A stretch of 47,025 nt of DNA, taken from contig CAYHJF010000003.1 in assembly GCA_964356915.1 (NCBI GenBank), positions 83,579-130,603 of the forward strand, in the 5' to 3' direction. Below, piece by piece: positions 4,288 through 43,470 of the stretch. The first letter of the stretch is position 1, and each line of letters opens with the position of its first letter. The notes beneath the pieces were generated by a model, which saw only the letters and a list, made by a program, of their open reading frames with translations, was not told the DNA's origin and searched no databases. The DNA is from an uncultured Candidatus Saccharibacteria bacterium. GTDB taxonomy: Bacteria; Patescibacteriota; Minisyncoccia; Ryanbacterales; GWA2-47-10b. Made by a program: the position numbers and the translations under genes.

Positions 4288-4968
4288 CTACAAAACGTAA
4301 CGGCCGTGCTTATCATCTCTCGTGATACGTCCGTTTTCCATCGTAAGCACGCGCTTCCCTATCGTATCAATAATCTCTTTATCGTGAGTAGCAAGAATCA
4401 CAGTCGTACCCAGTTCATTAATTTTCTGAAGTAATCTGATAATTTCCCAGGTATTTCCTGGATCAAGATTGCCCGTTGGCTCATCGGCCACTACTACTTC
4501 GGGGCGATTCACGAGCGCGCGCGCAATTGCAACACGTTGCTGCTGACCACCTGAAAGTTCGCGCGGAAAATAATCCATCTTATCACCAAGACCAACCAGC
4601 TCGAGCACATGCGGTACATCTGCCGCGATCTCTGCATCCTCACGTCCTGAAGCTTCAAGCGCAAACGCGACATTCTCAAATACTGTCTTCGTCGGCAATA
4701 AGCGAAAATCTTGAAAGACCGTGCCTATGCGCCGTCGAACGTGTGGAATCTGTGTACGAGAAAGTTGGTGTACGTTGAGTGATTCAAAAAATACCTCGCC
4801 TGAGGTTGGCTTTTCTTCCGCCAGAAGCAATCGAATGACTGTTGATTTACCCGCGCCCGACTGCCCCACCAAAGAAACAAACTCTTTTGGTTCCACTGAA
4901 AACGTTACGTTATCAAGCGCAACCAAATGTGAATTATAAATTTTTGTTACGTTATTGAAGTAGATCAT
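4288..4968 (-). CDS. ftsE: Cell division ATP-binding protein FtsE
   Basis: Walker [36 protein letters not shown]; start MIYFNNV at 4968. Confidence 0.95.
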
Positions 4969-6023
4969 GTTCGATACATTCATCGAGATCGCCATCGAGC
5001 ACTGCGTCCACATCATTCGTCTCATAATTATTGCGATGATCTTTTACCATCATATATGGATGAACAACGTATGAACGAATCTGGCTCCCCCATTCAATCT
5101 TAACGGGACTCTCGCCTTTGAGCCCTGCGATTTCTTTCTTTTTTGACTCTTCACGCATTGTAACTAATTTTGAACGAAGAATCGAGAGCGCGATATCACG
5201 ATTTGCCGCTTGTCCGCGCTCAGAGTCAACGTGTATTTGAATTCCTGTCGGTACGTGCACAATACGCACTGCGGTTGAACGCTTGTTAACATTTTGCCCT
5301 CCCGGACCCGAAGAGCGCGCGAAACTAATTTCAATATCATCATCTCTAATTTCAACGTCAGCGGTTTTTGGTAACACGGGCAATACTTCTACATATGCAA
5401 AACTTGTATGCCGTAATTTTTTTGAAGAAAAGGGCGAAATACGCACGAGACGATGCACGCCCATTTCGCGACGCAAATATCCATATCCGTATGTCCCATC
5501 GATCTGAACTGTCGCATTCTTGATGCCACCATGTTCATTCTCATGCTTATGCAATATTTCAAAGCGCCAATTCTTTCGTTCGGCATATCGTGTATACATA
5601 CGAAACAAAATACGCGCCCAATCTTCCGCGTCTTGACCGCCAGCCCCTGCAATAATAGTGAGCACCACTCCAGACTTATCATACGGCCCAGATAAAAGTG
5701 CTTTTTTTCGCTCTTTTTCAAAAAGACGCTCAAGTGTTGCGCACTCGGACTCAATACCAGCGTCATCAGAAATTTGAGCAAGCTCTTTAAGTGACCCGAC
5801 ATCACTCAAAAGCTTATCCCATAATCCAATATCATCTTTAAGTTCTTTAATTTGAGCGCCGACATCTCGCGCGCGCTCGTGGTTACGCCAAAAATCTTCC
5901 GACTGAGTTTCGGCCTCGAGCTTCAGTAATTCTTCTTTTTTAGCGCGCAGGTCAAAGATGGTCCGCGACTTCGCGGACCCGAGTCTCCAGTTCTTGAATA
6001 CGATTCAAAAATTCAGATGTCAT
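4952..6023 (-). CDS. prfB: Peptide chain release factor 2 with programmed +1 frameshift
   Basis: SPF (RISPF) and GGQ motifs. A 23-codon ORF from ATG 6023 ends at CTT TGA C (5957-5951), and the +1 frame continues [22 protein letters not shown]. Confidence 0.96.
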
Positions 6024-15120: not shown

Positions 15121-15495
15121 GATACATCCGTAAGCCGGATTCTGTTTTATGCAATCATCTCTCTAGGCCAAGGATTACTCGCTTGGCTCAAGCCTGCGAA
15201 TCTGCAGTTGCACCGGACAAGAGTTTTCCTCTGCGCGCGATTACTCACGCACACTGTGGTCTCTTACACCACTCTTTTCACCCTTACCTCCTTCAACCTC
15301 TCAAGTGTTTAGCTCAAGATGATGACGATCGGCGGTATGGTCTCTGTGGCACTATCTCGTATCTTAATCGTGTCTTGCGACACGACAGACTGGGTGGCCG
15401 TTAGCCATTGTCACTTTCTTTCATATACATATATGAAAGGGTGTCCGGACTTTCCTCTAAAGCGCATGTGCACTTCAGCGATTGCTCAATGTATC
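15121..15495 (-). ncRNA. rnpB: RNase P RNA
   Basis: Minus strand GAGGAAAGTCCGGAC near the 5' end and AACAGAATCCGGCTTA near the 3' end; terminal P1 GATACAT/ATGTATC. Confidence 0.95.
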
Positions 15496-15582
15496 GTCTG
15501 TAAATTATAGCACAATCTCACAAAAAATCAAGAATTAAAAAAACTCCCACAAGGAAGTTTTTTATCGCACAAAACTATACTC

Positions 15583-15801
15583 TTACATCGATGCGCTCGT
15601 GTTGCACATTTTGCAATTACTCTTGTGTGTTGCAATCTCTACGATTGCTGACACCCCGACAAGAATATAAATAGTTCGAGCAAGCATGGAATCCATGCCA
15701 CCAAGCCATCTACTAACATCCCACCCCACTACACCAACAAGAAGCCAATTCAAGCCTCCAATAACAAGTAAAGTAAACGTAACCATGTGTAATCCTTTCA
15801 T
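15583..15801 (-). CDS. DUF378 domain small membrane protein
   Basis: LLVIGGLNWLLVG...ARTIYILVGVSA; start MKGLHM at 15801 (the ORF-track extension runs into the tRNA-like gene). Confidence 0.88.
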   Translation of the reverse strand: MKGLHMVTFTLLVIGGLNWLLVGVVGWDVSRWLGGMDSMLARTIYILVGVSAIVEIATHKSNCKMCNTSASM

Positions 15802-15871
15802 ATAAAAAATATTGATGGAAACAAAACGACCTTTTTCTTTTTCTATAATACCGTTGTCTCGAAGGTAAAAC

Positions 15872-15900
15872 AAAAAGCCGCCAGCATGAAGCATGGCGGC
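15872..15900 (-). terminator. Terminator downstream of the tRNA-like array
   Basis: GCCGCCA...TGGCGGC stem with U-tract on the minus strand. Confidence 0.65.
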
Positions 15901-15938
15901 ACAATATAAGGAGAAAAGAACTGTATATAAGGGAAACA

Positions 15939-16012
15939 TTGGCCCGAGAGGATTTGAACCTCTGACCTCTTGCCCTGAAGGCAAGCGCTCTCCCTGACTG
16001 AGCTACGGGCCT
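15939..16012 (-). tRNA. Atypical tRNA-like gene: Ala(GGC)-type body with TCA (UGA-reading) anticodon
   Basis: AGGCCCG TA GCTC AGTCAGGGA GAGC G CTTGC CTTCAGG GCAAG AGGTC AGAGG TTCAAAT CCTCT CGGGCCA A; A1.A72 mismatch, no G3.U70, no long variable arm. Confidence 0.8.
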
Positions 16013-16015
16013 GCA

Positions 16016-16101
16016 TGGTCCCGAGGGGACTCGAACCCCCGTTACGAGTATCGGAGGGGGGGTCTCCTAAACTCGCGTCCTAGCCACTAGACGACGGGAC
16101 C
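16016..16101 (-). ncRNA. tRNA-like RNA: Glu-type body with elongated anticodon arm
   Basis: GGTCCCG TC GTCTAGTGGCTAGGAC G CGAGT [TTA GGAG ACCCCCC CTCC GAT] ACTCG TAAC GGGGG TTCGAGT CCCCT CGGGACC A. Confidence 0.8.
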
Positions 16102-16102
16102 A

Positions 16103-16176
16103 AGTCGCGGGGCGGAATCGAACCGCCGCTTGTCGGATCAGGAATCCGATGCCTTAGCCAACTTGGCTACCGCGAC
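16103..16176 (-). tRNA. tRNA with CCT anticodon (nominal Arg) on a Cys-like body
   Basis: GTCGCGG TA GCC AAGTTGGCTAA GGC A TCGGA TTCCTGA TCCGA CAAGC GGCGG TTCGATT CCGCC CCGCGAC T; U73, C rather than A after G18G19. Confidence 0.8.
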
Positions 16177-16198
16177 AAGACCTAGACGAGAAGTATCA

Positions 16199-16280
16199 AG
16201 TACCCGGGAGGATTCGAACCTCCGACCTCTTATGCCACACTCGGGTAGCACAAGCGCTCTCCCAACTGAGCTACGGGCAC
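16199..16280 (-). ncRNA. tRNA-like RNA: Ala-type body (G3.U70) with 10-bp anticodon stem and 6-nt loop
   Basis: GTGCCCG TA GCTC AGTTGGGA GAGC G CTTGTGCTAC CCGAGT GTGGCATAAG AGGTC GGAGG TTCGAAT CCTCC CGGGTAC T. Confidence 0.8.
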
Positions 16281-16315
16281 AAAGAAAGAACGACAAAATC
16301 GAGATTAGCAACAAA

Positions 16316-16353
16316 TAAAAAACCGGTCAAGCGTCTAGCGCACTCGACCAGTT
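16316..16353 (-). terminator. Terminator-like hairpin just upstream of the tRNA-like array
   Basis: Minus strand ACTGGTCGAGTG-CGCTAGA-CGCTTGACCGGT then TTTTT. Confidence 0.55.
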
Positions 16354-16500
16354 TTCTTATAGAGTCGCCAAATGGGAAGCCAATCATCTCTCTCCACCAC
16401 GCAAGGTATTAAAAAATTCTTTAAAAGGCCGCAGGAAATGAAGATCAACTCACTAGTAAGGTTTTCGTCTTTTGAAAAAGAGTGGATAAGAAGGAGCTTG

Positions 16501-16524
16501 AAAAACAAAACCGCCCGAAGGCGG
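16501..16524 (-). terminator. Terminator after the small hydrophobic peptide gene
   Basis: Minus strand CCGCC-TTCG-GGCGG-TTTTGTTTTT. Confidence 0.75.
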
Positions 16525-16532
16525 CCTTGGAG

Positions 16533-16589
16533 TTACCTTCTGATTTCTCGGATCAGGAGAATCAAAAGAATAAGAGTTAGACTTTCCAT
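16533..16589 (-). CDS. 18-aa hydrophobic peptide MESLTLILLILLIREIRR (type I toxin-like)
   Basis: Manual translation; upstream TG-a-TATAAT (16636-16644), start codon inside a hairpin, terminator immediately downstream. Confidence 0.55.
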   Translation of the reverse strand: MESLTLILLILLIREIRR

Positions 16590-16692
16590 ATTTTATGGAA
16601 TTTCCTAGCACCTCTAACAATTTTTACGCTCTTAAATTATATCATTATTTCTCGCTCTTTCCCACTTAACGCAAAAGAGTAAAATAAGCGAT

Positions 16693-17178
16693 ATGTTAAG
16701 ACAAAGACGCATACTTTTCTACCTCAGAGAAGCTCAAATTGTATATGATAAAAAATTAAACGAAGAGATGGACGCCCACATCATTCCTGATATATTTGTA
16801 GGCACTGGCGAGGGAGTTCCAATTTATCTCTTAGTGAACTTTATTCTTGAAAAAGAAAAGAAGGATAAGACATATAGAAAAGATCTAGAATTCCAAATAA
16901 AAGACTGCGTACCAAGTGGTCTTTTAGGACACCCATACTCTTATGACCCATTTAATGGCACCGCCAGAAGAATTGATTATTTTGTTTGTATGACGCCTAA
17001 AGGAAGGAAGTTGGTTACTGAAAATTTTATTTTTAGGTGGCTTTATTTTTTCGAATTTTTTCTAAAAGAGTTTGATAGAACGAATGCTCTTATCGTTACA
17101 CTGTTACTAAGTAGCGTTTTCTGGGGAGGTATTCTTCTTTTTAGTGAGCACCTTAAGAGTATATTCGGTATATCGTAG
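16693..17178 (+). CDS. Hypothetical protein with C-terminal TM (AT-rich)
   Basis: 161-aa ORF; TAAAAT 7 nt before ATG. Confidence 0.65.
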   Translation: MLRQRRILFYLREAQIVYDKKLNEEMDAHIIPDIFVGTGEGVPIYLLVNFILEKEKKDKTYRKDLEFQIKDCVPSGLLGHPYSYDPFNGTARRIDYFVCMTPKGRKLVTENFIFRWLYFFEFFLKEFDRTNALIVTLLLSSVFWGGILLFSEHLKSIFGIS

Positions 17179-17275
17179 ACTAATTTTTAGTATTTTTTAT
17201 ATTAAAACGTTATGGTAAAAAATAAAACAAGATGGCAACGGGCGACAAACTAACAAAAAATGTTTTTCTCTTCCC

Positions 17276-18130
17276 TCAAGATAATATCTCTCCGAGAAGC
17301 CCCCAAAACTGTGGCCAGCTTTTAGTAACTGCTTCGGGATGTTCAAACTGCACTTCTTTTTTCTCCACCTTCCCTTTCATCGCAAGCGCCTGTACCACGC
17401 GATGATCCCACGACGTAATTGGCTTCCCTGCTTCAAAATTTTCTAACTCCACCTCCATCACTTCTATCCTATTGCTCTCATGGCCCTCTAGATTGGGCCA
17501 ACGCTCTTTTCCCTCCTTCTGAGTAATATATCCAAAGGCTCGGGCAAAACAATAATCCTCAGCTTGGTGTGGTACAAACTCTGGCTGCTCACCTCGCATA
17601 AGCGCTATAAACGTCTCTGCTTGGCGCAATATCGTCTCATCATATCGTAGCTCCCACGTCATCCCTTTGGCACGTCTTTCGCGCCAGTGACTTACCGCTT
17701 CATATGTAAGCTTCAACTTAAATGACGAATTTTTTATTACTTCATCTCTACCACACAACAGTGCAGCACTCGCCCATTGTGACGTACCATGATCAAGTTC
17801 AAGAAGCTTTGAGAGTGAATATGAAATAATGCCCGCATCGTTTGTGATGGGACGATCTTTGAGAGTTCCTTGTTTGATAAAAACTTTATTGAAACCAAAA
17901 TGCCAAGAAGCAAATTGCAAAAATCGATAGAGCGTTCCCGACTCCCCTACATCGATCGCTTCATCTGTATGCCACGCGCGAGCTGCACGTAACAACGCCT
18001 CCAAATCATCGGAAAGATTATTCTGCACCTCAAGAAATATCTCGATATCAGAGTATCCGTTGACGATATCGAGCACGCCAACTCGCATCATCCACGACTT
18101 ATCGAGCGGAATATATTCTTTAATATTCAA
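17276..18130 (-). CDS. Shortened EPSP synthase (AroA)-like / enolpyruvyl transferase-fold protein
   Basis: PLDKSWMMR, DVGESGTLYRFL, TSQWASAALL, ESNRI, DHRVVQAL and VTKSWPQFW mirror AroA motifs; likely TTG start at 18130 after AGGAGAGG. Confidence 0.75.
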   Translation of the reverse strand: MNIKEYIPLDKSWMMRVGVLDIVNGYSDIEIFLEVQNNLSDDLEALLRAARAWHTDEAIDVGESGTLYRFLQFASWHFGFNKVFIKQGTLKDRPITNDAGIISYSLSKLLELDHGTSQWASAALLCGRDEVIKNSSFKLKLTYEAVSHWRERRAKGMTWELRYDETILRQAETFIALMRGEQPEFVPHQAEDYCFARAFGYITQKEGKERWPNLEGHESNRIEVMEVELENFEAGKPITSWDHRVVQALAMKGKVEKKEVQFEHPEAVTKSWPQFWGLLGEILS

Positions 18131-18641
18131 TTCCTCTCCTCGCTTTTTTGCCTTCATAAAATGGATGCTTAACATCTTTGATCTCACTGACAAGATCGGC
18201 CTCATCAATCAAGGATTGTTTAGCTCCCCTACCCGTCAAAATCAAATCTACTTTTTTCTCTCGACTTGTACGAATTAACCGGAGCGCATCTTCTTCGGCA
18301 ATCAAACCTAGATCAATCGCATTGTGTATCTCATCGGCAATAATAATATTCCATTGTTCACCTTCCACTTCACGAATCAATTCTGCGAGCGCATCTTTCG
18401 CCGCCCCCTCATGTTCCTCACGCGGAAGCGTATCATTTAAAATTCCGACGAATCCTTTGCCGCGCTTTCGTAATTCAAAATCCGGAAGCAGACGCTTGTG
18501 CGATTCGTCTTCGCCCGACGGCCACGGCCCTTTGATAAACTGAATCATCAATACTTTTTTACCATCTCCGACCGAACGAAGTGCTTGCCCCAACGCCGCA
18601 GTCGTCTTCCCCTTTCCATCGCCAGTAAAGATATAAATCAC
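18120..18641 (-). CDS. btuR: Cob(I)yrinic acid a,c-diamide / cob(I)alamin adenosyltransferase (BtuR/CobO)
   Basis: IFTGDGKGKTTAALG, QFIKG, DLILTGR, KHPF...ARRGIEY. Confidence 0.93.
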   Translation of the reverse strand: MIYIFTGDGKGKTTAALGQALRSVGDGKKVLMIQFIKGPWPSGEDESHKRLLPDFELRKRGKGFVGILNDTLPREEHEGAAKDALAELIREVEGEQWNIIIADEIHNAIDLGLIAEEDALRLIRTSREKKVDLILTGRGAKQSLIDEADLVSEIKDVKHPFYEGKKARRGIEY

Positions 18642-33342: not shown

Positions 33343-35808
33343 ATGAAATCAAAGGAACCGAAACCAGAGCAAGAAGTAGCACACGTTCAGCTGCGTGATA
33401 TCGCGCGCGAAATGCGCGAATCATATCTCGACTATGCAATGTCGGTTATTGTTACGCGCGCGCTACCTGATGTACGTGATGGACTCAAACCAGTACATCG
33501 TCGCATCCTCTATACAATGCGTGGGATGGGGCTCCGTCATACTACAAAACATCGCAAATCTGCCGCAGTCGTTGGTGACGTACTTGGTAAATATCACCCG
33601 CACGGTGACGCTCCAGTGTACGATGCGCTCGCGCGCATGGCTCAAGATTTTTCTATGCGCTACCCGCTTATTGATGGACAGGGAAACTTTGGATCGATCG
33701 ATGGCGACTCTCCTGCTGCGATGCGTTATACCGAAGCTCGCATGGCCGCGCTCTCTGACGAGCTTCTTCTTGATATCGACAAAGAAACAGTTGATTTTAT
33801 GCCGAACTATGATGGCACCCGAGAAGAGCCAACGGTATTCCCCGCTCGCATCCCCTATCTTCTTCTCAATGGCTCCTTAGGAATTGCAGTTGGTATGGCG
33901 ACCAATATTCCTCCCCATAACCTTACAGAACTCATCAATGCGGCTCTTACGCTTATCGAAAATCCAAAAGCAACGACTGAAGATTTACTTGAACACATCA
34001 AGGGTCCTGACTTTCCTATGGGAGGGATTATTTTCAATAAACAAGATATTCACCAAGCATATTCAACTGGCAAGGGTAGTATTGTAGCCCGCGGAGAAGC
34101 AGAGATCATCGAAAAAGAAACGGGACGCGGACACGCAATTATCATCACCTCCATTCCATATCAGGTAAACAAGGCGGAGATGATTGAAAAAATGGCTGAT
34201 TTGGTACGAGAGAAAAAAATCGATGGCATCAAAGATATTCGCGACGAATCGGATAAAGATGGGCTTCGCGTTGCTATTGAGTTGAAAAATGACGCGTACC
34301 CTCAAAAGGTACTCAATAATCTCTACAAACATACTGATCTCGAAAAAGTATTCCATTTAAATATGCTCGCCCTTGTAGGCGGTATTCAACCTCAAACACT
34401 CTCTCTCAAACACTATTTTGAGGAATTTGTCGCCACTCGCCGAATCATGGTTGATCGACGAACCCGTCACGACCTACGAATCGCCGAGGAACGCGCTCAT
34501 ATTCTTGAAGGACTCAAAAAAGCTCTCGACCACATCGATGAGATCATCAGTACAATCAAAAAATCTAAAGACCGAGAGAGCGCGCACACAAACCTCATGC
34601 AAAAGTTTAAGCTCTCAGAAAGACAATCGACCGCAATTCTTGAAATGCGCCTCCAAACACTCGCTGGGCTTGAACGTAAAAAGATTGAGGATGAACTCGC
34701 AGAAAAACGCGCGATTATTAAAGATTTGAAAGCGATTCTCGCCGACCCTAAGAAACTCTTGGCGGTGATAACAAAAGAACTTATCGAAATTCGTGATAAA
34801 TACGGGGACGAACGACGTACAAAAGTTGTCGCTACAGGCGTGAGCGCAATGGCGACAGAAGATCTTATACCCGAGGAAGAGCAGGTTGTACTAATGACGC
34901 AGGGCGGGTATTTGAAACGTGTACGACCTCAAGAATTTCGTGCTCAACGAAGAGGCGGCAAAGGTACTATTGGTGGTGAATGGAAAGAAGAAGATGTAGT
35001 TTCTCAATTCGCTACCGCAAATACCCACGACTCCCTTTTGTTCTTCTCAAGTCTTGGAAAAGTATACGAGTTACGAGTCTTCGAGATCCCCGAGAGCTCG
35101 CGCACGGCAAAAGGACGCCCCGTCGTCAACTTCCTTCCCCTTGCAGCCGGTGAAGAGATCACTTCTTTCCTTTCAGTACCAAAGAAAACAAAAGGAGAGA
35201 AAGACCAAGCGCTCATCATGACAACCCGCAAAGGAATCGTTAAAAAAACAACATTTAGCTCGTTTGCTGGAGTCCGTAAATCGGGCATCATCGCCATGAA
35301 ACTACAGAAAGGAGATGTACTGGGCTGGGTACGAATTCTAGATCTTGGAGCCGATATCATGCTGTTCTCAAAGAAAGGACAAGCTATCCGTTTTAAAGAG
35401 AAGCAACTGCGCGACATGGGACGTCAGGCTCAGGGTGTACGTGGTATGAGGCTTAAATCGGGCGATGAAATCATCGGCTGCGAAGTAATTGGCAAAGAAA
35501 GAAAAGACGCCGAAGTCTTTGTTGCAAGTACGCTTGGATTTGGTAAACGCAGTAAAGCAAGTGAATTTAAAGCACAATCTCGCGGAGGCTCTGGCGTAAA
35601 GACAATGAACGTCGGAGAAAGCACAGGACCTCTTGTTGCGGCATGCGTACCCGATCCTGCCGCCGAAGAATTTATCGCAATCTCAGCAAAAGGAAAAACA
35701 CTCCGTAGTCATATAAAAGAAATCCCAACACTCAAGCGCGCAACTCGCGGCGTCCGCATTATGCGCTTTGAATCAGGTGACCGCCTCACGAATATCGCAC
35801 TTTTGTAG
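33343..35808 (+). CDS. gyrA: DNA gyrase subunit A
   Basis: [29 protein letters not shown], GyrA box QRRGGKG. Confidence 0.98.
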
Positions 35809-35821
35809 TACAATGGAAGCC

Positions 35822-36358
35822 ATGAAAGGCTTCTCGAATCCGGAAGAAGTAGTTGAACATCTTAATTTATATGGGGCAATGAAAATTGCTGACTTTGGTG
35901 CACATGCGGGATTTTGGGCACTTCCACTCGCTCGACATATTACATCAGAGGGAGTTGTCTACGCGCTCGATGTTCAACGAGAACCCCTCCGGCTCCTCGC
36001 TAAACGTGCGGGTGAAGCAAATCTCCACAACATTCGAGTTATGCACGCTGATCTTGAGCGGTCTGAGGGTAGTAAACTCAAAACAGATTCTATAGATCTC
36101 GTACTCGTGGCTCATATTCTTTTTCAAGTCAGTGAAAAAATGCATATACTAAAGGAAGCGCATCGGATTCTAAAAAAAGGTGCTCGCATTGTACTTGTGG
36201 AATGGGATACTGTTGAACCGCGCCCAATTGGGCCCGCACGTGAACATCGAATTGATAAAAAAGAGTTGGAACGTTTGCTTATCGAGGCTCAATTCGAGAA
36301 TATTTCCCACTTCAATCTTAGCAATCATCATTACGGTATTATCGCTCACAAAAAATGA
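35822..36358 (+). CDS. Class I SAM-dependent methyltransferase
   Basis: IADFGAHAG, VYALDV, EAHRILKKG; start MKGF with TACAAT 7 nt upstream (35813 is an alternative). Confidence 0.85.
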   Translation: MKGFSNPEEVVEHLNLYGAMKIADFGAHAGFWALPLARHITSEGVVYALDVQREPLRLLAKRAGEANLHNIRVMHADLERSEGSKLKTDSIDLVLVAHILFQVSEKMHILKEAHRILKKGARIVLVEWDTVEPRPIGPAREHRIDKKELERLLIEAQFENISHFNLSNHHYGIIAHKK

Positions 36359-37645: not shown

Positions 37646-38092
37646 ACCACATGACCCGCCTTCTCTCACTTACTCTCCTTCTCTTCCTCATCCCTCTCAC
37701 ATCATTTGGCGCAACAACACTCGTACCAACAGGATGTCAGGCAGGATGTCCGTGTACACTCTGTGACTTCTATCTTCTCGCGCACAATATCATCACCATA
37801 CTCTTTGAGTTGATGGCGATCATCGCCGTTCTTTCATTTTTGTATGGTGGTATTTTGATCATGACATCTGGAGGGAGTGAAGGAAAAGTAAAACAAGGGA
37901 AAGATGCGATCACAAGTGCTGTCATTGGCGCACTCATCGCGGGGCTTGCATGGCTCTTTTTTAGTGCCGCGCTAAACTCACTAACATTTGGAATTAAAAC
38001 CGTTACGCTCGACGGGTTCTTTAAACCGCTTGCGTGCAATACGGGAGGAGGAGAATCATGTAACACGACATTTAAACCGAAGCCGCCTCCGG
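37646..38092 (+). repeat. 447-bp direct repeat, copy 1
   Basis: Identical by eye to 38719-39165 (offset 1073). Confidence 0.95.
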
Positions 38093-38727
38093 ACCCCGCG
38101 ATCGCACGCCTCATGCAAGAAATGGACCAAGGAACGTTTCGAAATGGTTTTGATACAAGCGACCCTGCATTTGCACGCTGCCAAGGAACTGAAGCTGCAT
38201 CCTGCTCATGGAAAGGTGCGGGGGTTCCACCAGACCCCAATGCAGTAAATAACGTCATTAATAACTATAAAGACGAAATTATTGCAGCTCTTGGAGCAAA
38301 CGCTACTCCAGAAAACATCGCGGCTGTAGCAGCAATTATGGCAACGGAATCTGGAGGAAGACCAAATGTTTCAAGCCCAGCAAATGCGCATGGTCTCATG
38401 CAAATGATTCCGAGTACTGCGCGCCTTGTTGACCCATCGCTACGAGGAATGTCGGACGCACAAATTGCAGCAAAACTAAAATCAGACCCTGCGTATGCCG
38501 TAACTCTTGGTACTCAACACTACATGGCACTTCAGAATAAATATGGCCCTGACCTTGCTGCTGCCGCGTACAATGGTGGAGAAGGAGCACTCCGTAAAAG
38601 TAAAACGTGCCCCGGACAAATGTACTGGGAATGTGAAGCAAACGCTGGTTATAGAGAAACGCGCAACTATGTTGCAAAGGTAAAGGGAGCTCGCGACGAG
38701 GTACGAAGACGACTTGGAACCACATGA
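37651..38727 (+). CDS. CPR-type pilin (TrbC/VirB2-like) fused to a soluble lytic transglycosylase (SLT) domain
   Basis: Signal peptide, CxxxCxCxxC, YGGILIMTSGGSEGKVKQGKDAITSAVIG pilin motif; C-terminal AAIMATESGG, GLMQ, AAYNGG, ETRNYV. Confidence 0.9.
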   Translation: MTRLLSLTLLLFLIPLTSFGATTLVPTGCQAGCPCTLCDFYLLAHNIITILFELMAIIAVLSFLYGGILIMTSGGSEGKVKQGKDAITSAVIGALIAGLAWLFFSAALNSLTFGIKTVTLDGFFKPLACNTGGGESCNTTFKPKPPPDPAIARLMQEMDQGTFRNGFDTSDPAFARCQGTEAASCSWKGAGVPPDPNAVNNVINNYKDEIIAALGANATPENIAAVAAIMATESGGRPNVSSPANAHGLMQMIPSTARLVDPSLRGMSDAQIAAKLKSDPAYAVTLGTQHYMALQNKYGPDLAAAAYNGGEGALRKSKTCPGQMYWECEANAGYRETRNYVAKVKGARDEVRRRLGTT

Positions 38728-43105: not shown

Positions 43106-43177
43106 AGGCCTGAGCGGGAATCGAACCCGCGTGTAAGAGTTTTGCAGACTCTTGCCTTACCACTTGGCTATCAGGCC
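43106..43177 (-). tRNA. tRNA-Cys(GCA)
   Basis: GGCCTGA/TCAGGCC acceptor, loop CT-GCA-AA, U73. Confidence 0.95.
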
Positions 43178-43470
43178 AAGCCTTCTTCAGATACTACAAA
43201 ATGAATACTGGGCGAATATTTCGTTCGCAGACGAGCACGCAAAAAGTGTGCTGCCCTATTTTCGCTCATCTCTAGAATTTTTGCAATATCAGCACGTAAG
43301 TTATCAGGAAAAATGCTCACGTATACAGTTACACGCGTACCGCTTGTCATAGACTCTGCATACAATACTGATATTAAAACGCCATTTGGCAAAATAAGCT
43401 CCTGACGGAAAAAAGCCGGGAGAATTTCTTTTATAACCGCCGACAAACGCTCTCTACGCCTCTCGTTCAT
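43171..43470 (-). CDS. rbfA: Ribosome-binding factor A
   Basis: RRRERLSAVIKEIL...LRARLRTKYSPSIHF; directly follows infB. Confidence 0.85.
   Translation of the reverse strand: MNERRRERLSAVIKEILPAFFRQELILPNGVLISVLYAESMTSGTRVTVYVSIFPDNLRADIAKILEMSENRAAHFLRARLRTKYSPSIHFVVSEEGLA

Follow-up and report, generated by a model that had tools for sequence, protein, structure and literature searches.

Can a transfer RNA (tRNA) that reads UGA have a place in a bacterium that ends its genes with UGA? The question is raised by a tRNA gene with anticodon UCA (15939-16012, minus strand) in the 47,025-nucleotide (nt) stretch of DNA analysed here, called the window, from the genome of a groundwater bacterium of the Patescibacteria (0.88 Mb in 9 contigs, rated 99% complete, 44.6% G+C). 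The UCA gene was confirmed as a genuine, structurally intact tRNA gene, more than a chance likeness, and it is outside the host's own decoding set. It belongs to a foreign-looking cluster of four tRNA-type genes (genes 1 to 4 below, the UCA gene being gene 4) carried by this species-level lineage only, for which a mobile origin is inferred from sequence comparison. Our leading, still tentative, account is that the cluster is an acquired, probably phage-type tRNA-array fragment, the UCA member of which has weak suppressor activity, or none, in this host.

ARAGORN returned at this position a 74-nt tRNA with anticodon tca; the Rfam model RF00005 matched it over model positions 1-71 of 71 with 61.5 bits (E 5e-11), above the gathering threshold of 29 bits and hence a member of the tRNA family, and inside the range of the other 10 window tRNAs (50.7-69 bits with the same model). 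Read 5' to 3', the gene is AGGCCCG-UA-GCUC-AGUCAGGGA-GAGC-G-CUUGC-CUUCAGG-GCAAG-AGGUC-AGAGG-UUCAAAU-CCUCU-CGGGCCA-A, that is, an acceptor helix AGGCCCG/CGGGCCA; a D arm GCUC-AGUCAGGGA-GAGC with a stem of 4 base pairs (bp); an anticodon stem CUUGC/GCAAG with the loop C32 U33 U34 C35 A36 G37 G38 (CUUCAGG); a variable loop AGGUC of 5 nt; a T arm AGAGG-UUCAAAU-CCUCU; and the discriminator A73, CCA not being encoded. Positions 1-72 (AxA) form the sole non-standard pair flagged by Rfam; they are followed by G2-C71 and G3-C70, hence G3.U70 is absent. The existence of a UCA tRNA at this place, its CU-UCA-GG loop on the CUUGC/GCAAG stem, the missing G3.U70 and the mismatch at 1-72 had all been claimed from the letters alone (the sequence-only reading below), and each was borne out by the programs or by direct reading. 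It had also been supposed that C32-G38 could close the loop; the pair can form, and the minimum-energy folds of genes 2 and 4 shut the anticodon loop to three bases, but this carries little weight as an argument, positions 32-38 being pairable in 11 of 43 host tRNAs. G37 after A36, unusual for bacteria, was found in one of the 8 host tRNAs with A36, namely tRNA-Phe. In that tRNA-Phe(GAA) (G000:C1:238890-238962) G37 instead of A37 is the archaeal/eukaryotic pattern.

The host clearly uses UGA as an ordinary stop, and codes 4 and 25 are excluded, as the sequence-only reading had held from an encoded RF2 and from genes ending in TGA. The RF2 gene encodes the SPF motif, and its frameshift site contains an in-frame TGA (5952-5954); because this autoregulatory CTT TGA C site makes sense only if RF2 reads UGA as stop, that function is taken as retained. 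Open reading frames (ORFs) of the window with a TGA stop include 35768-36358, 37651-38727 and rbfA (43171-43470), and a crude longest-ORF gene call over the genome (886 ORFs) gave 465 TAA, 233 TAG and 188 TGA stops (21% TGA). When TGA was read as sense, the coverage rose from 0.895 to 0.897 only, and the frame stayed open for at least 40 codons past the stop in 19% of cases for TGA, 23% for TAA and 20% for TAG. Conserved in-frame TGA codons, for which a genome-wide scan had been proposed, did not come to light: 16 read-throughs, among the longest or most gap-filling, were translated with table 4 and scanned against Pfam, and in 16/16 the two sides of the TGA were separate genes or domains (e.g., LigA and GatC; pilin and prepilin peptidase; YchF and S6), no domain crossing a TGA. 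A hidden code-4 prophage was rejected, the windows of top code-4 gain being rRNA, non-coding DNA or adjacent gene pairs, and no local code-4 region was found across the host genome. The TGA share of 21% (44.6% G+C) compares with 28% (52/185) in a 194-kb sample of the relative G004 (49.7% G+C); the lower share tracks G+C, with no sign of TGA purging. The sample of the relative G005 was too small for this comparison (2/22 ORFs).

The host has 47 tRNA genes, including a normal tRNA-Trp(CCA), 3 tRNA-Ala, 3 tRNA-Pro and 5 tRNA-Arg outside the cluster; tRNA-Asn(GUU) and tRNA-Lys(UUU) were not found by ARAGORN in the 9 host contigs and may fall in assembly gaps. tRNA-Ile is present as UAU and GAU.

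A UCA anticodon suggests tRNA-Sec by the triplet, on which alone the ARAGORN label 'SeC' rests. Bacterial tRNA-Sec has 8/5 acceptor/T helices, a 6-bp D stem and a long variable arm; with 7/5 helices, a 4-bp D stem, a 5-nt variable loop and no 8- or 9-bp acceptor, the UCA gene is ruled out as tRNA-Sec, in agreement with the sequence-only reading. The check for absent selA, selB and selD that had been proposed gave the same answer: the profiles PF03841 (SelA), TIGR00476 (SelD) and PF09107 (SelB) had 0 matches in the 99%-complete host genome, and control genomes matched.

The flanks of the anticodon had been taken for those of tRNA-Ala(GGC). This description is half right: the neighbour at 16199-16280 is Ala-like with G3.U70. 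Of the 34 look-alikes of the UCA gene itself in the class, the closest and most numerous are tRNA-Arg(CCG/GCG/UCG) genes from other families (17), followed by Ala (7), Val and Lys. Identity to tRNA-Arg of the Paceibacteria class reaches at most 84% (62/74 positions), the T arm and the lower part of the acceptor stem being the same and C35 and G37 shared; the T arm and 3' acceptor string CAGAGGTTCAAATCCTCTCGGG is the same in several tRNA-Arg(CCG/GCG) genes. The class tRNA-Arg genes differ in G36, A20 and the top of the acceptor stem, the UCA gene having A36 and G20. The anticodon arm GCGCTTGCCT-NNN-GGGCAAGAGG (the UCA-gene arm) is of another kind: it had 46 matches in the GTDB species representatives, and 43 of them were tRNA-Pro(GGG), which has the identical stem and loop frame GCGCUUGC-CU-NNN-GG-GCAAGAGG including C32, G37 and G38, and A73 too, but differs in the GGG anticodon, C1-G72 and a D arm that is mostly GCGC/GCGC, against UCA, A1xA72 and GCUC/GAGC. 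Among these 46 matches the exact arm never carried the anticodon TCA, the window's own genome possibly lying outside the scan. One match of the 46, on the chromosome of a Bryobacterales metagenome-assembled genome (L063), combines a typical tRNA-Pro body and this arm with the anticodon CGA (serine codon UCG), the sole such case.

Set beside the bacterial identity rules, taken as general background, the UCA tRNA fits none well. The G3.U70 pair is alone sufficient for alanine charging, and the UCA gene has G3-C70. Arginine identity (E. coli rule) lies in A20 of the D loop and C35; C35 is present, the D loop puts G at 20, and the host tRNA-Arg genes outside the cluster, six in this comparison, all have GGAUA. 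Of the proline set (G35, G36, A73, G72) only A73 fits, the anticodon being UCA and position 72 being A. The identity set of bacterial tryptophanyl-tRNA synthetase (TrpRS) is G73, A1-U72, C35 and A36; A1, C35 and A36 fit, A72 (a mismatch) and A73 do not, and the host tRNA-Trp has G1-C72 and G73. U73, as in the glycine and cysteine rules, is missing. A 1-72 mismatch is expected to weaken use by EF-Tu (cf. initiator tRNA). Just 2 matches to Trp/Tyr-type synthetases were found in the host, with no extra partner synthetase.

The UCA gene is the last of the four tRNA-type genes, all on the minus strand; the gaps between them measure 22, 1 and 3 nt. Genes 1 and 4 are paralogues (74% identical; direct repeats D1, D8 and D12). 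In gene 1 the anticodon arm forms a helix of 10 bp closed by a loop of 6 nt (16 nt where the Rfam model expects 7), and according to mode ARAGORN called the gene 'Pyl cta' or 'Thr tgt with 7-nt intron'. That of gene 3 has two storeys, a helix of 6 bp and one of 4 bp parted by a 3x3 internal loop and capped by a 7-nt loop (19 nt in the loop where the Rfam model expects 5); ARAGORN mislabelled this gene 'Pro agg'. In both genes the 7 nt that adjoin the 3' stem strand on its 5' side, GUGUGGC in gene 1 and CUCCGAU (CCG) in gene 3, resemble normal anticodon loops, and the letters look as though an extra 5' segment (9 and 14 nt, respectively) paired with the former-looking anticodon loop (in gene 3, with part of it) and masked the anticodon. 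An intron reading of the two was rejected: the archaeal-type tRNA splicing endonuclease (PF01974) was not found in the host genome, there is no bulge-helix-bulge, and the intron mode of ARAGORN gives a different, arbitrary answer. Gene 2 has G37, a 3-bp D stem, a Cys/Gln-type D arm and U73 and lacks A20; its body resembles host tRNA-Cys and phage tRNA-Gln (one from a Ralstonia phage matches at 84.7% over 58 nt) and is unlike tRNA-Arg, and A37 is present in all 11 host tRNAs with U36. By the usual rules its body and its CCU anticodon are thus mismatched. A match to YrlA (Y RNA-like) over the junction of genes 3 and 4 was discarded (32.7 bits vs the 69-bit threshold); it arises from two adjoining tRNAs.

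The cluster stands outside the common genome layout of the lineage. Host tRNAs have short AGUGGUA-type D loops and are unlike the cluster genes, and the closest match of the UCA gene in the genome is gene 1. In a blastn search of 60 relatives for an orthologue of the cluster only ordinary tRNAs were obtained (at most 84%); the UCA gene matched 0/9 family genomes at E of 1e-5 or below, and against 400 class genomes only ordinary tRNAs, none above 84% identity. Genes 2 and 3 had no class match, and the 7/401 genomes that matched (G000, the host, included) matched gene 1 alone. The site itself points the same way: in 0/21 relatives with detected rnpB does a tRNA lie within 1.5 kb of that gene, and in G005 and G006 the order is CobA, 310-amino-acid gene, rnpB, 97-amino-acid gene and TPR gene, with nothing interposed. 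A synteny search with the 310-amino-acid neighbour gave 2 loci at 53% identity, both without tRNAs. The region 16450-17350 has 33-36% G+C, and a search of 5.8 billion proteins gave no homologue of the 161-amino-acid orphan ORF. The link to UGA reassignment in other lineages of the candidate phyla radiation, put forward by the sequence-only reading, found no footing here, the gene lying outside the tRNA set of the lineage, the stretch being absent at this site in 21/21 relatives and look-alikes numbering 0/9 in the family.

Logan contigs from runs of three studies cover the cluster, by which an assembly artefact was ruled out; overlapping contigs place RNase P RNA and DUF378 at one end of it and the 310-amino-acid gene at the other. 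The contigs of the likely source's study (X2) and of a second study (X3) are identical over the covered part. The third study (X8) gave one 596-nt contig, 15749-16344, with two changes, neither in gene 4; one of them, A16252G, disrupts a base pair of the elongated gene 1 helix and is uncompensated. In all, X8 differs by 7 letters and 1 gap in 15468-15732, by 2 letters in 15749-16344 and by 0 in the UCA gene; zero change over 74 nt is not significant, and no selection argument was drawn from it.

In IMG/VR, matches were obtained for single D arms. The D arm of gene 3 occurs in 73 IMG/VR contigs; when the isotype of the matching tRNA was compared for 40 of these 73 loci, it was tRNA-Glu in 38/40, nearly always within a multi-tRNA array. 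The 22-nt D arm of gene 4 occurs in one IMG/VR contig (L128, 61.8 kb, 15 tRNA matches). On this contig a 117-nt phage tRNA-like gene (L128:1495-1614, plus strand) has a Trp-type acceptor (A1-U72, G73, CCA), and a long irregular hairpin replaces its anticodon arm; it was overlooked by ARAGORN, and the gene after it was read with a 4-base anticodon (ctat).

Features of the window bearing on the UCA tRNA gene and its site
Feature	Position	Strand	Basis
prfB (RF2), programmed +1 frameshift at CTT TGA C (5951-5957)	4952..6023	-	translations; Pfam PCRF, RF-1
Lineage-specific stretch, ~1.8 kb, between RNase P RNA and 310-amino-acid gene	15498..17275	.	synteny, composition
DUF378 gene in lineage-specific stretch	15583-15810	-	
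G+C-rich hairpin + U run, likely intrinsic terminator	15866..15900	-	fold of 15860-15940, z -4.35
tRNA gene 4, anticodon UCA	15939..16012	-	ARAGORN; Rfam tRNA 61.5 bits; fold z -3.3
tRNA-like gene 3, Glu/Arg-type body, 88 nt	16015..16102	-	ARAGORN 'Pro agg'; Rfam 50.7 bits; fold
tRNA gene 2, anticodon CCU	16103..16176	-	ARAGORN; Rfam 65.5 bits
tRNA-like gene 1, Ala-type body, G3.U70	16199..16280	-	ARAGORN; Rfam 51.4 bits; fold
17-pair hairpin + T run, terminator-like, just upstream of cluster	16317..16357	-	terminator scan; fold z -6.3
Orphan ORFs in lineage-specific stretch	16372-16608 and 16693-17178	+	

Around the four genes, the likely terminator hairpin lies 39 nt after the UCA gene and is absent from the list of a simple terminator scan. 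By scan, no sigma-70 promoter was found between the upstream hairpin and gene 1; the same rule matches just 10/39 host tRNA units, which makes this negative uninformative. No RNA runs holding this DNA were found among the 15 runs listed. A second terminator-like hairpin lies nearby at 16506-16529 (minus strand), and the 14 nt at 16545-16558 match the anticodon arm of gene 2 at 13/14, which may be a further tRNA-copy relic or chance. Two tandem RtcB RNA-ligase paralogues are encoded about 15 kb upstream of the window (G000:C3:66258-69007). The 310-amino-acid protein (17276-18208, minus strand) adjoins RNase P RNA and is family-conserved (57% identity in G005/G006); its sole Pfam match is a weak one that covers the final 44 positions of EPSP synthase.

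Taken together, the four-gene array was most likely acquired from a mobile element or a phage-type tRNA array. In the donor element the UCA tRNA would serve UGA read-through; in the present host, where RF2 reads UGA, it would be poorly charged, used or expressed, and would act as at most a weak, leaky opal suppressor without recoded targets. Since UGA remains an ordinary stop read by RF2, the UCA tRNA is probably weak or inactive. Several observations weigh against this account. As to origin, the UCA-gene arm had 0 matches in IMG/VR and in the metagenomes of the Joint Genome Institute, so that a donor was not identified, and the best match in GenBank phage records is 84% over about 60 nt, to phage tRNA-Arg/Pro. 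PHROGs profiles of phage proteins matched 0/5 ORFs in or beside the stretch, and neither an integrase nor a convincing flanking repeat was found there. A single DUF378 gene is normal for the group, sited elsewhere in the relatives, so that part of the 'insert' may be a rearrangement. (DUF378 was also tried as a marker of the donor and rejected, being single-copy elsewhere in the relatives, with 22/24 loci without a nearby tRNA.) As to inactivity, the UCA gene does not look decayed: its four stems all pair (1-72 AxA aside); the tertiary positions U8, A14, G18, G19, G15-C48 and U54-U55-C56 are standard by direct reading; relative to the paralogous gene 1 it shows compensated changes, G49-C65 to A-U in the T stem and U-A to G-C at 2-71; and a good terminator hairpin stands downstream. 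It is, moreover, kept in natural populations, unchanged in the contigs of two further studies.

A rival reading takes the tRNA for an opal suppressor at work in the host, conditionally or at a low level. A synthetase of the cell that recognises C35 and A36 (TrpRS as the most plausible, or ArgRS or CysRS) would charge it, and the insertion of an amino acid at some UGA codons would yield C-terminal extensions or tune the synthesis of RF2 at its own UGA frameshift site. We hold this unlikely. An intact cloverleaf with U33, a 7-nt loop and a downstream terminator speaks for it, as do the unchanged gene in the runs of two further studies, the G37 after A36 shared with host tRNA-Phe, by which the loop is not alien to the cell, and A1, the first base of bacterial tRNA-Trp, along with the 22-nt D arm shared with the IMG/VR phage gene that has a Trp-type acceptor. 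The genome tells otherwise: 21% of ORFs end in TGA with no selection against TGA seen, no gene requires read-through, and the gene is absent in all relatives searched; A1xA72 and A73 misfit the bacterial Trp, Cys, Gly and Pro rules, the A20 of Arg is missing, and the host tRNA-Trp, with G1-C72 and G73, is of a different type, no partner synthetase being present.

The four genes could instead give rise to non-decoding mimics, tRNA-shaped RNAs serving as decoys for tRNA-cutting toxins or defence nucleases, or as non-ribosomal donors of amino acids. This explanation, which we regard as rather improbable, draws on genes 1 and 3, whose 10-bp helix with 6-nt loop and two-storey arm are unable to present a normal anticodon and whose 5' inserts pair with an apparent former anticodon loop; on the G3.U70 of gene 1, enough alone for alanine charging; on the three-base loops in the minimum-energy folds of genes 2 and 4; on the 1-72 mismatch, which should weaken EF-Tu binding by analogy with initiator tRNA; and on phage tRNAs with altered anticodon loops, which are described as escaping tRNA-targeting defences (PMC10264068). 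Genes 2 and 4, however, have ordinary 7-nt loops with U33, and the closed fold is no argument for a mimic, 11/43 host tRNAs pairing 32-38 and tRNA-Pro(GGG) having the same C32...G37 G38 arm. The cluster has no neighbouring gene for a toxin, a nuclease or a Fem-type transferase, and the single in-cluster change in X8 breaks a helix pair of gene 1 without compensation.

A dead copy is very unlikely: a duplicated or imported gene of tRNA-Arg(UCG) type, hit by G36A, A20G and a change at position 72, now a young neutral pseudogene. Such a parent would account for the nearest class bodies being tRNA-Arg (17/34), for CAGAGGTTCAAATCCTCTCGGG being shared with tRNA-Arg(CCG/GCG) and for the loop CUUCAGG standing two positions from the CUUCGGA of the relatives' tRNA-Arg(UCG), and the siblings, genes 1 and 3, look disrupted. 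Yet the stems of the UCA gene are fully paired and its stem changes compensated; the supposed hits are concentrated where synthetases read (acceptor top, D loop, anticodon) rather than spread at random; the passage from G1-C72 or A1-U72 to A1xA72 with A73 takes several mutations; and no parent gene was found in the family (0/9 genomes). It is likewise highly doubtful that the four genes form a working, acquired 'code-tampering' cassette in a standard-code Patescibacterium, in which a UGA-reading tRNA with a new identity set would be joined by a CCU tRNA on a non-arginine body and by genes 1 and 3 with anticodons masked by inserts and freed only after processing (two tandem RtcB ligases), the whole being a mobile mistranslation or read-through module, or a living 'ambiguous intermediate' of the kind that came before UGA reassignment in other Patescibacteria.

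Three known systems come close to the UCA gene and its cluster, the first below being the nearest and the second the next. UCA suppressor tRNAs are described in TGA-recoded (code 4) phages and also in their standard-code relatives (Borges et al., bioRxiv 10.1101/2021.08.26.457843); the likeness consists in a compact tRNA array, foreign to the host tRNA set, in a cell that uses UGA as stop, and the difference in that here there are no phage genes around, no TGA-recoded genes and no nearby TrpRS/RF1 'code-change module'. The UCA gene also lacks the bacterial Trp marks A1-U72 and G73. The tRNA-Gly(UCA) of code-25 Absconditabacteria, Gracilibacteria and phage RSA-ATP1 (bioRxiv 10.1101/2024.03.08.584096) has phylum and anticodon in common with the UCA gene; this genome, in contrast, has RF2 and TGA stops, and the UCA gene has A73, A1xA72, a 5-nt variable loop, an acceptor not of glycine type and closest bodies that are Arg and Ala rather than Gly. 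The phage arrays cited above, whose tRNAs escape tRNA-targeting defences and have altered anticodon loops (eLife 2023, PMC10264068), are alike in the tight array and in anticodon arms that depart from those of the host; those tRNAs still decode normal codons, whereas in the present cluster two arms are too enlarged to be usable and another reads a stop codon, and no defence or phage context was found around it. A limited literature search, which is no proof of absence, turned up no Patescibacterium with the standard code for which a UCA tRNA had been described.

The finding is tentatively taken as a suppressor-type tRNA carried on foreign DNA, and the interpretation is narrowed to that extent. 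The automatic labels 'tRNA-SeC' (gene 4) and 'tRNA-Pyl' (gene 1) are wrong and could mislead predictions of the genetic code for the group. Caution is due in reading the gene as a stage in code evolution: it is an add-on that further aberrant tRNA genes accompany, it does not characterise the lineage, and the genome in which it stands shows no adaptation to read-through. Suppressor tRNAs in standard-code cells are the proposed first step to stop-codon reassignment, and some lineages of the Patescibacteria have reassigned UGA; an intact UCA tRNA kept in a wild standard-code population would make a natural test case, provided that it is charged and used.

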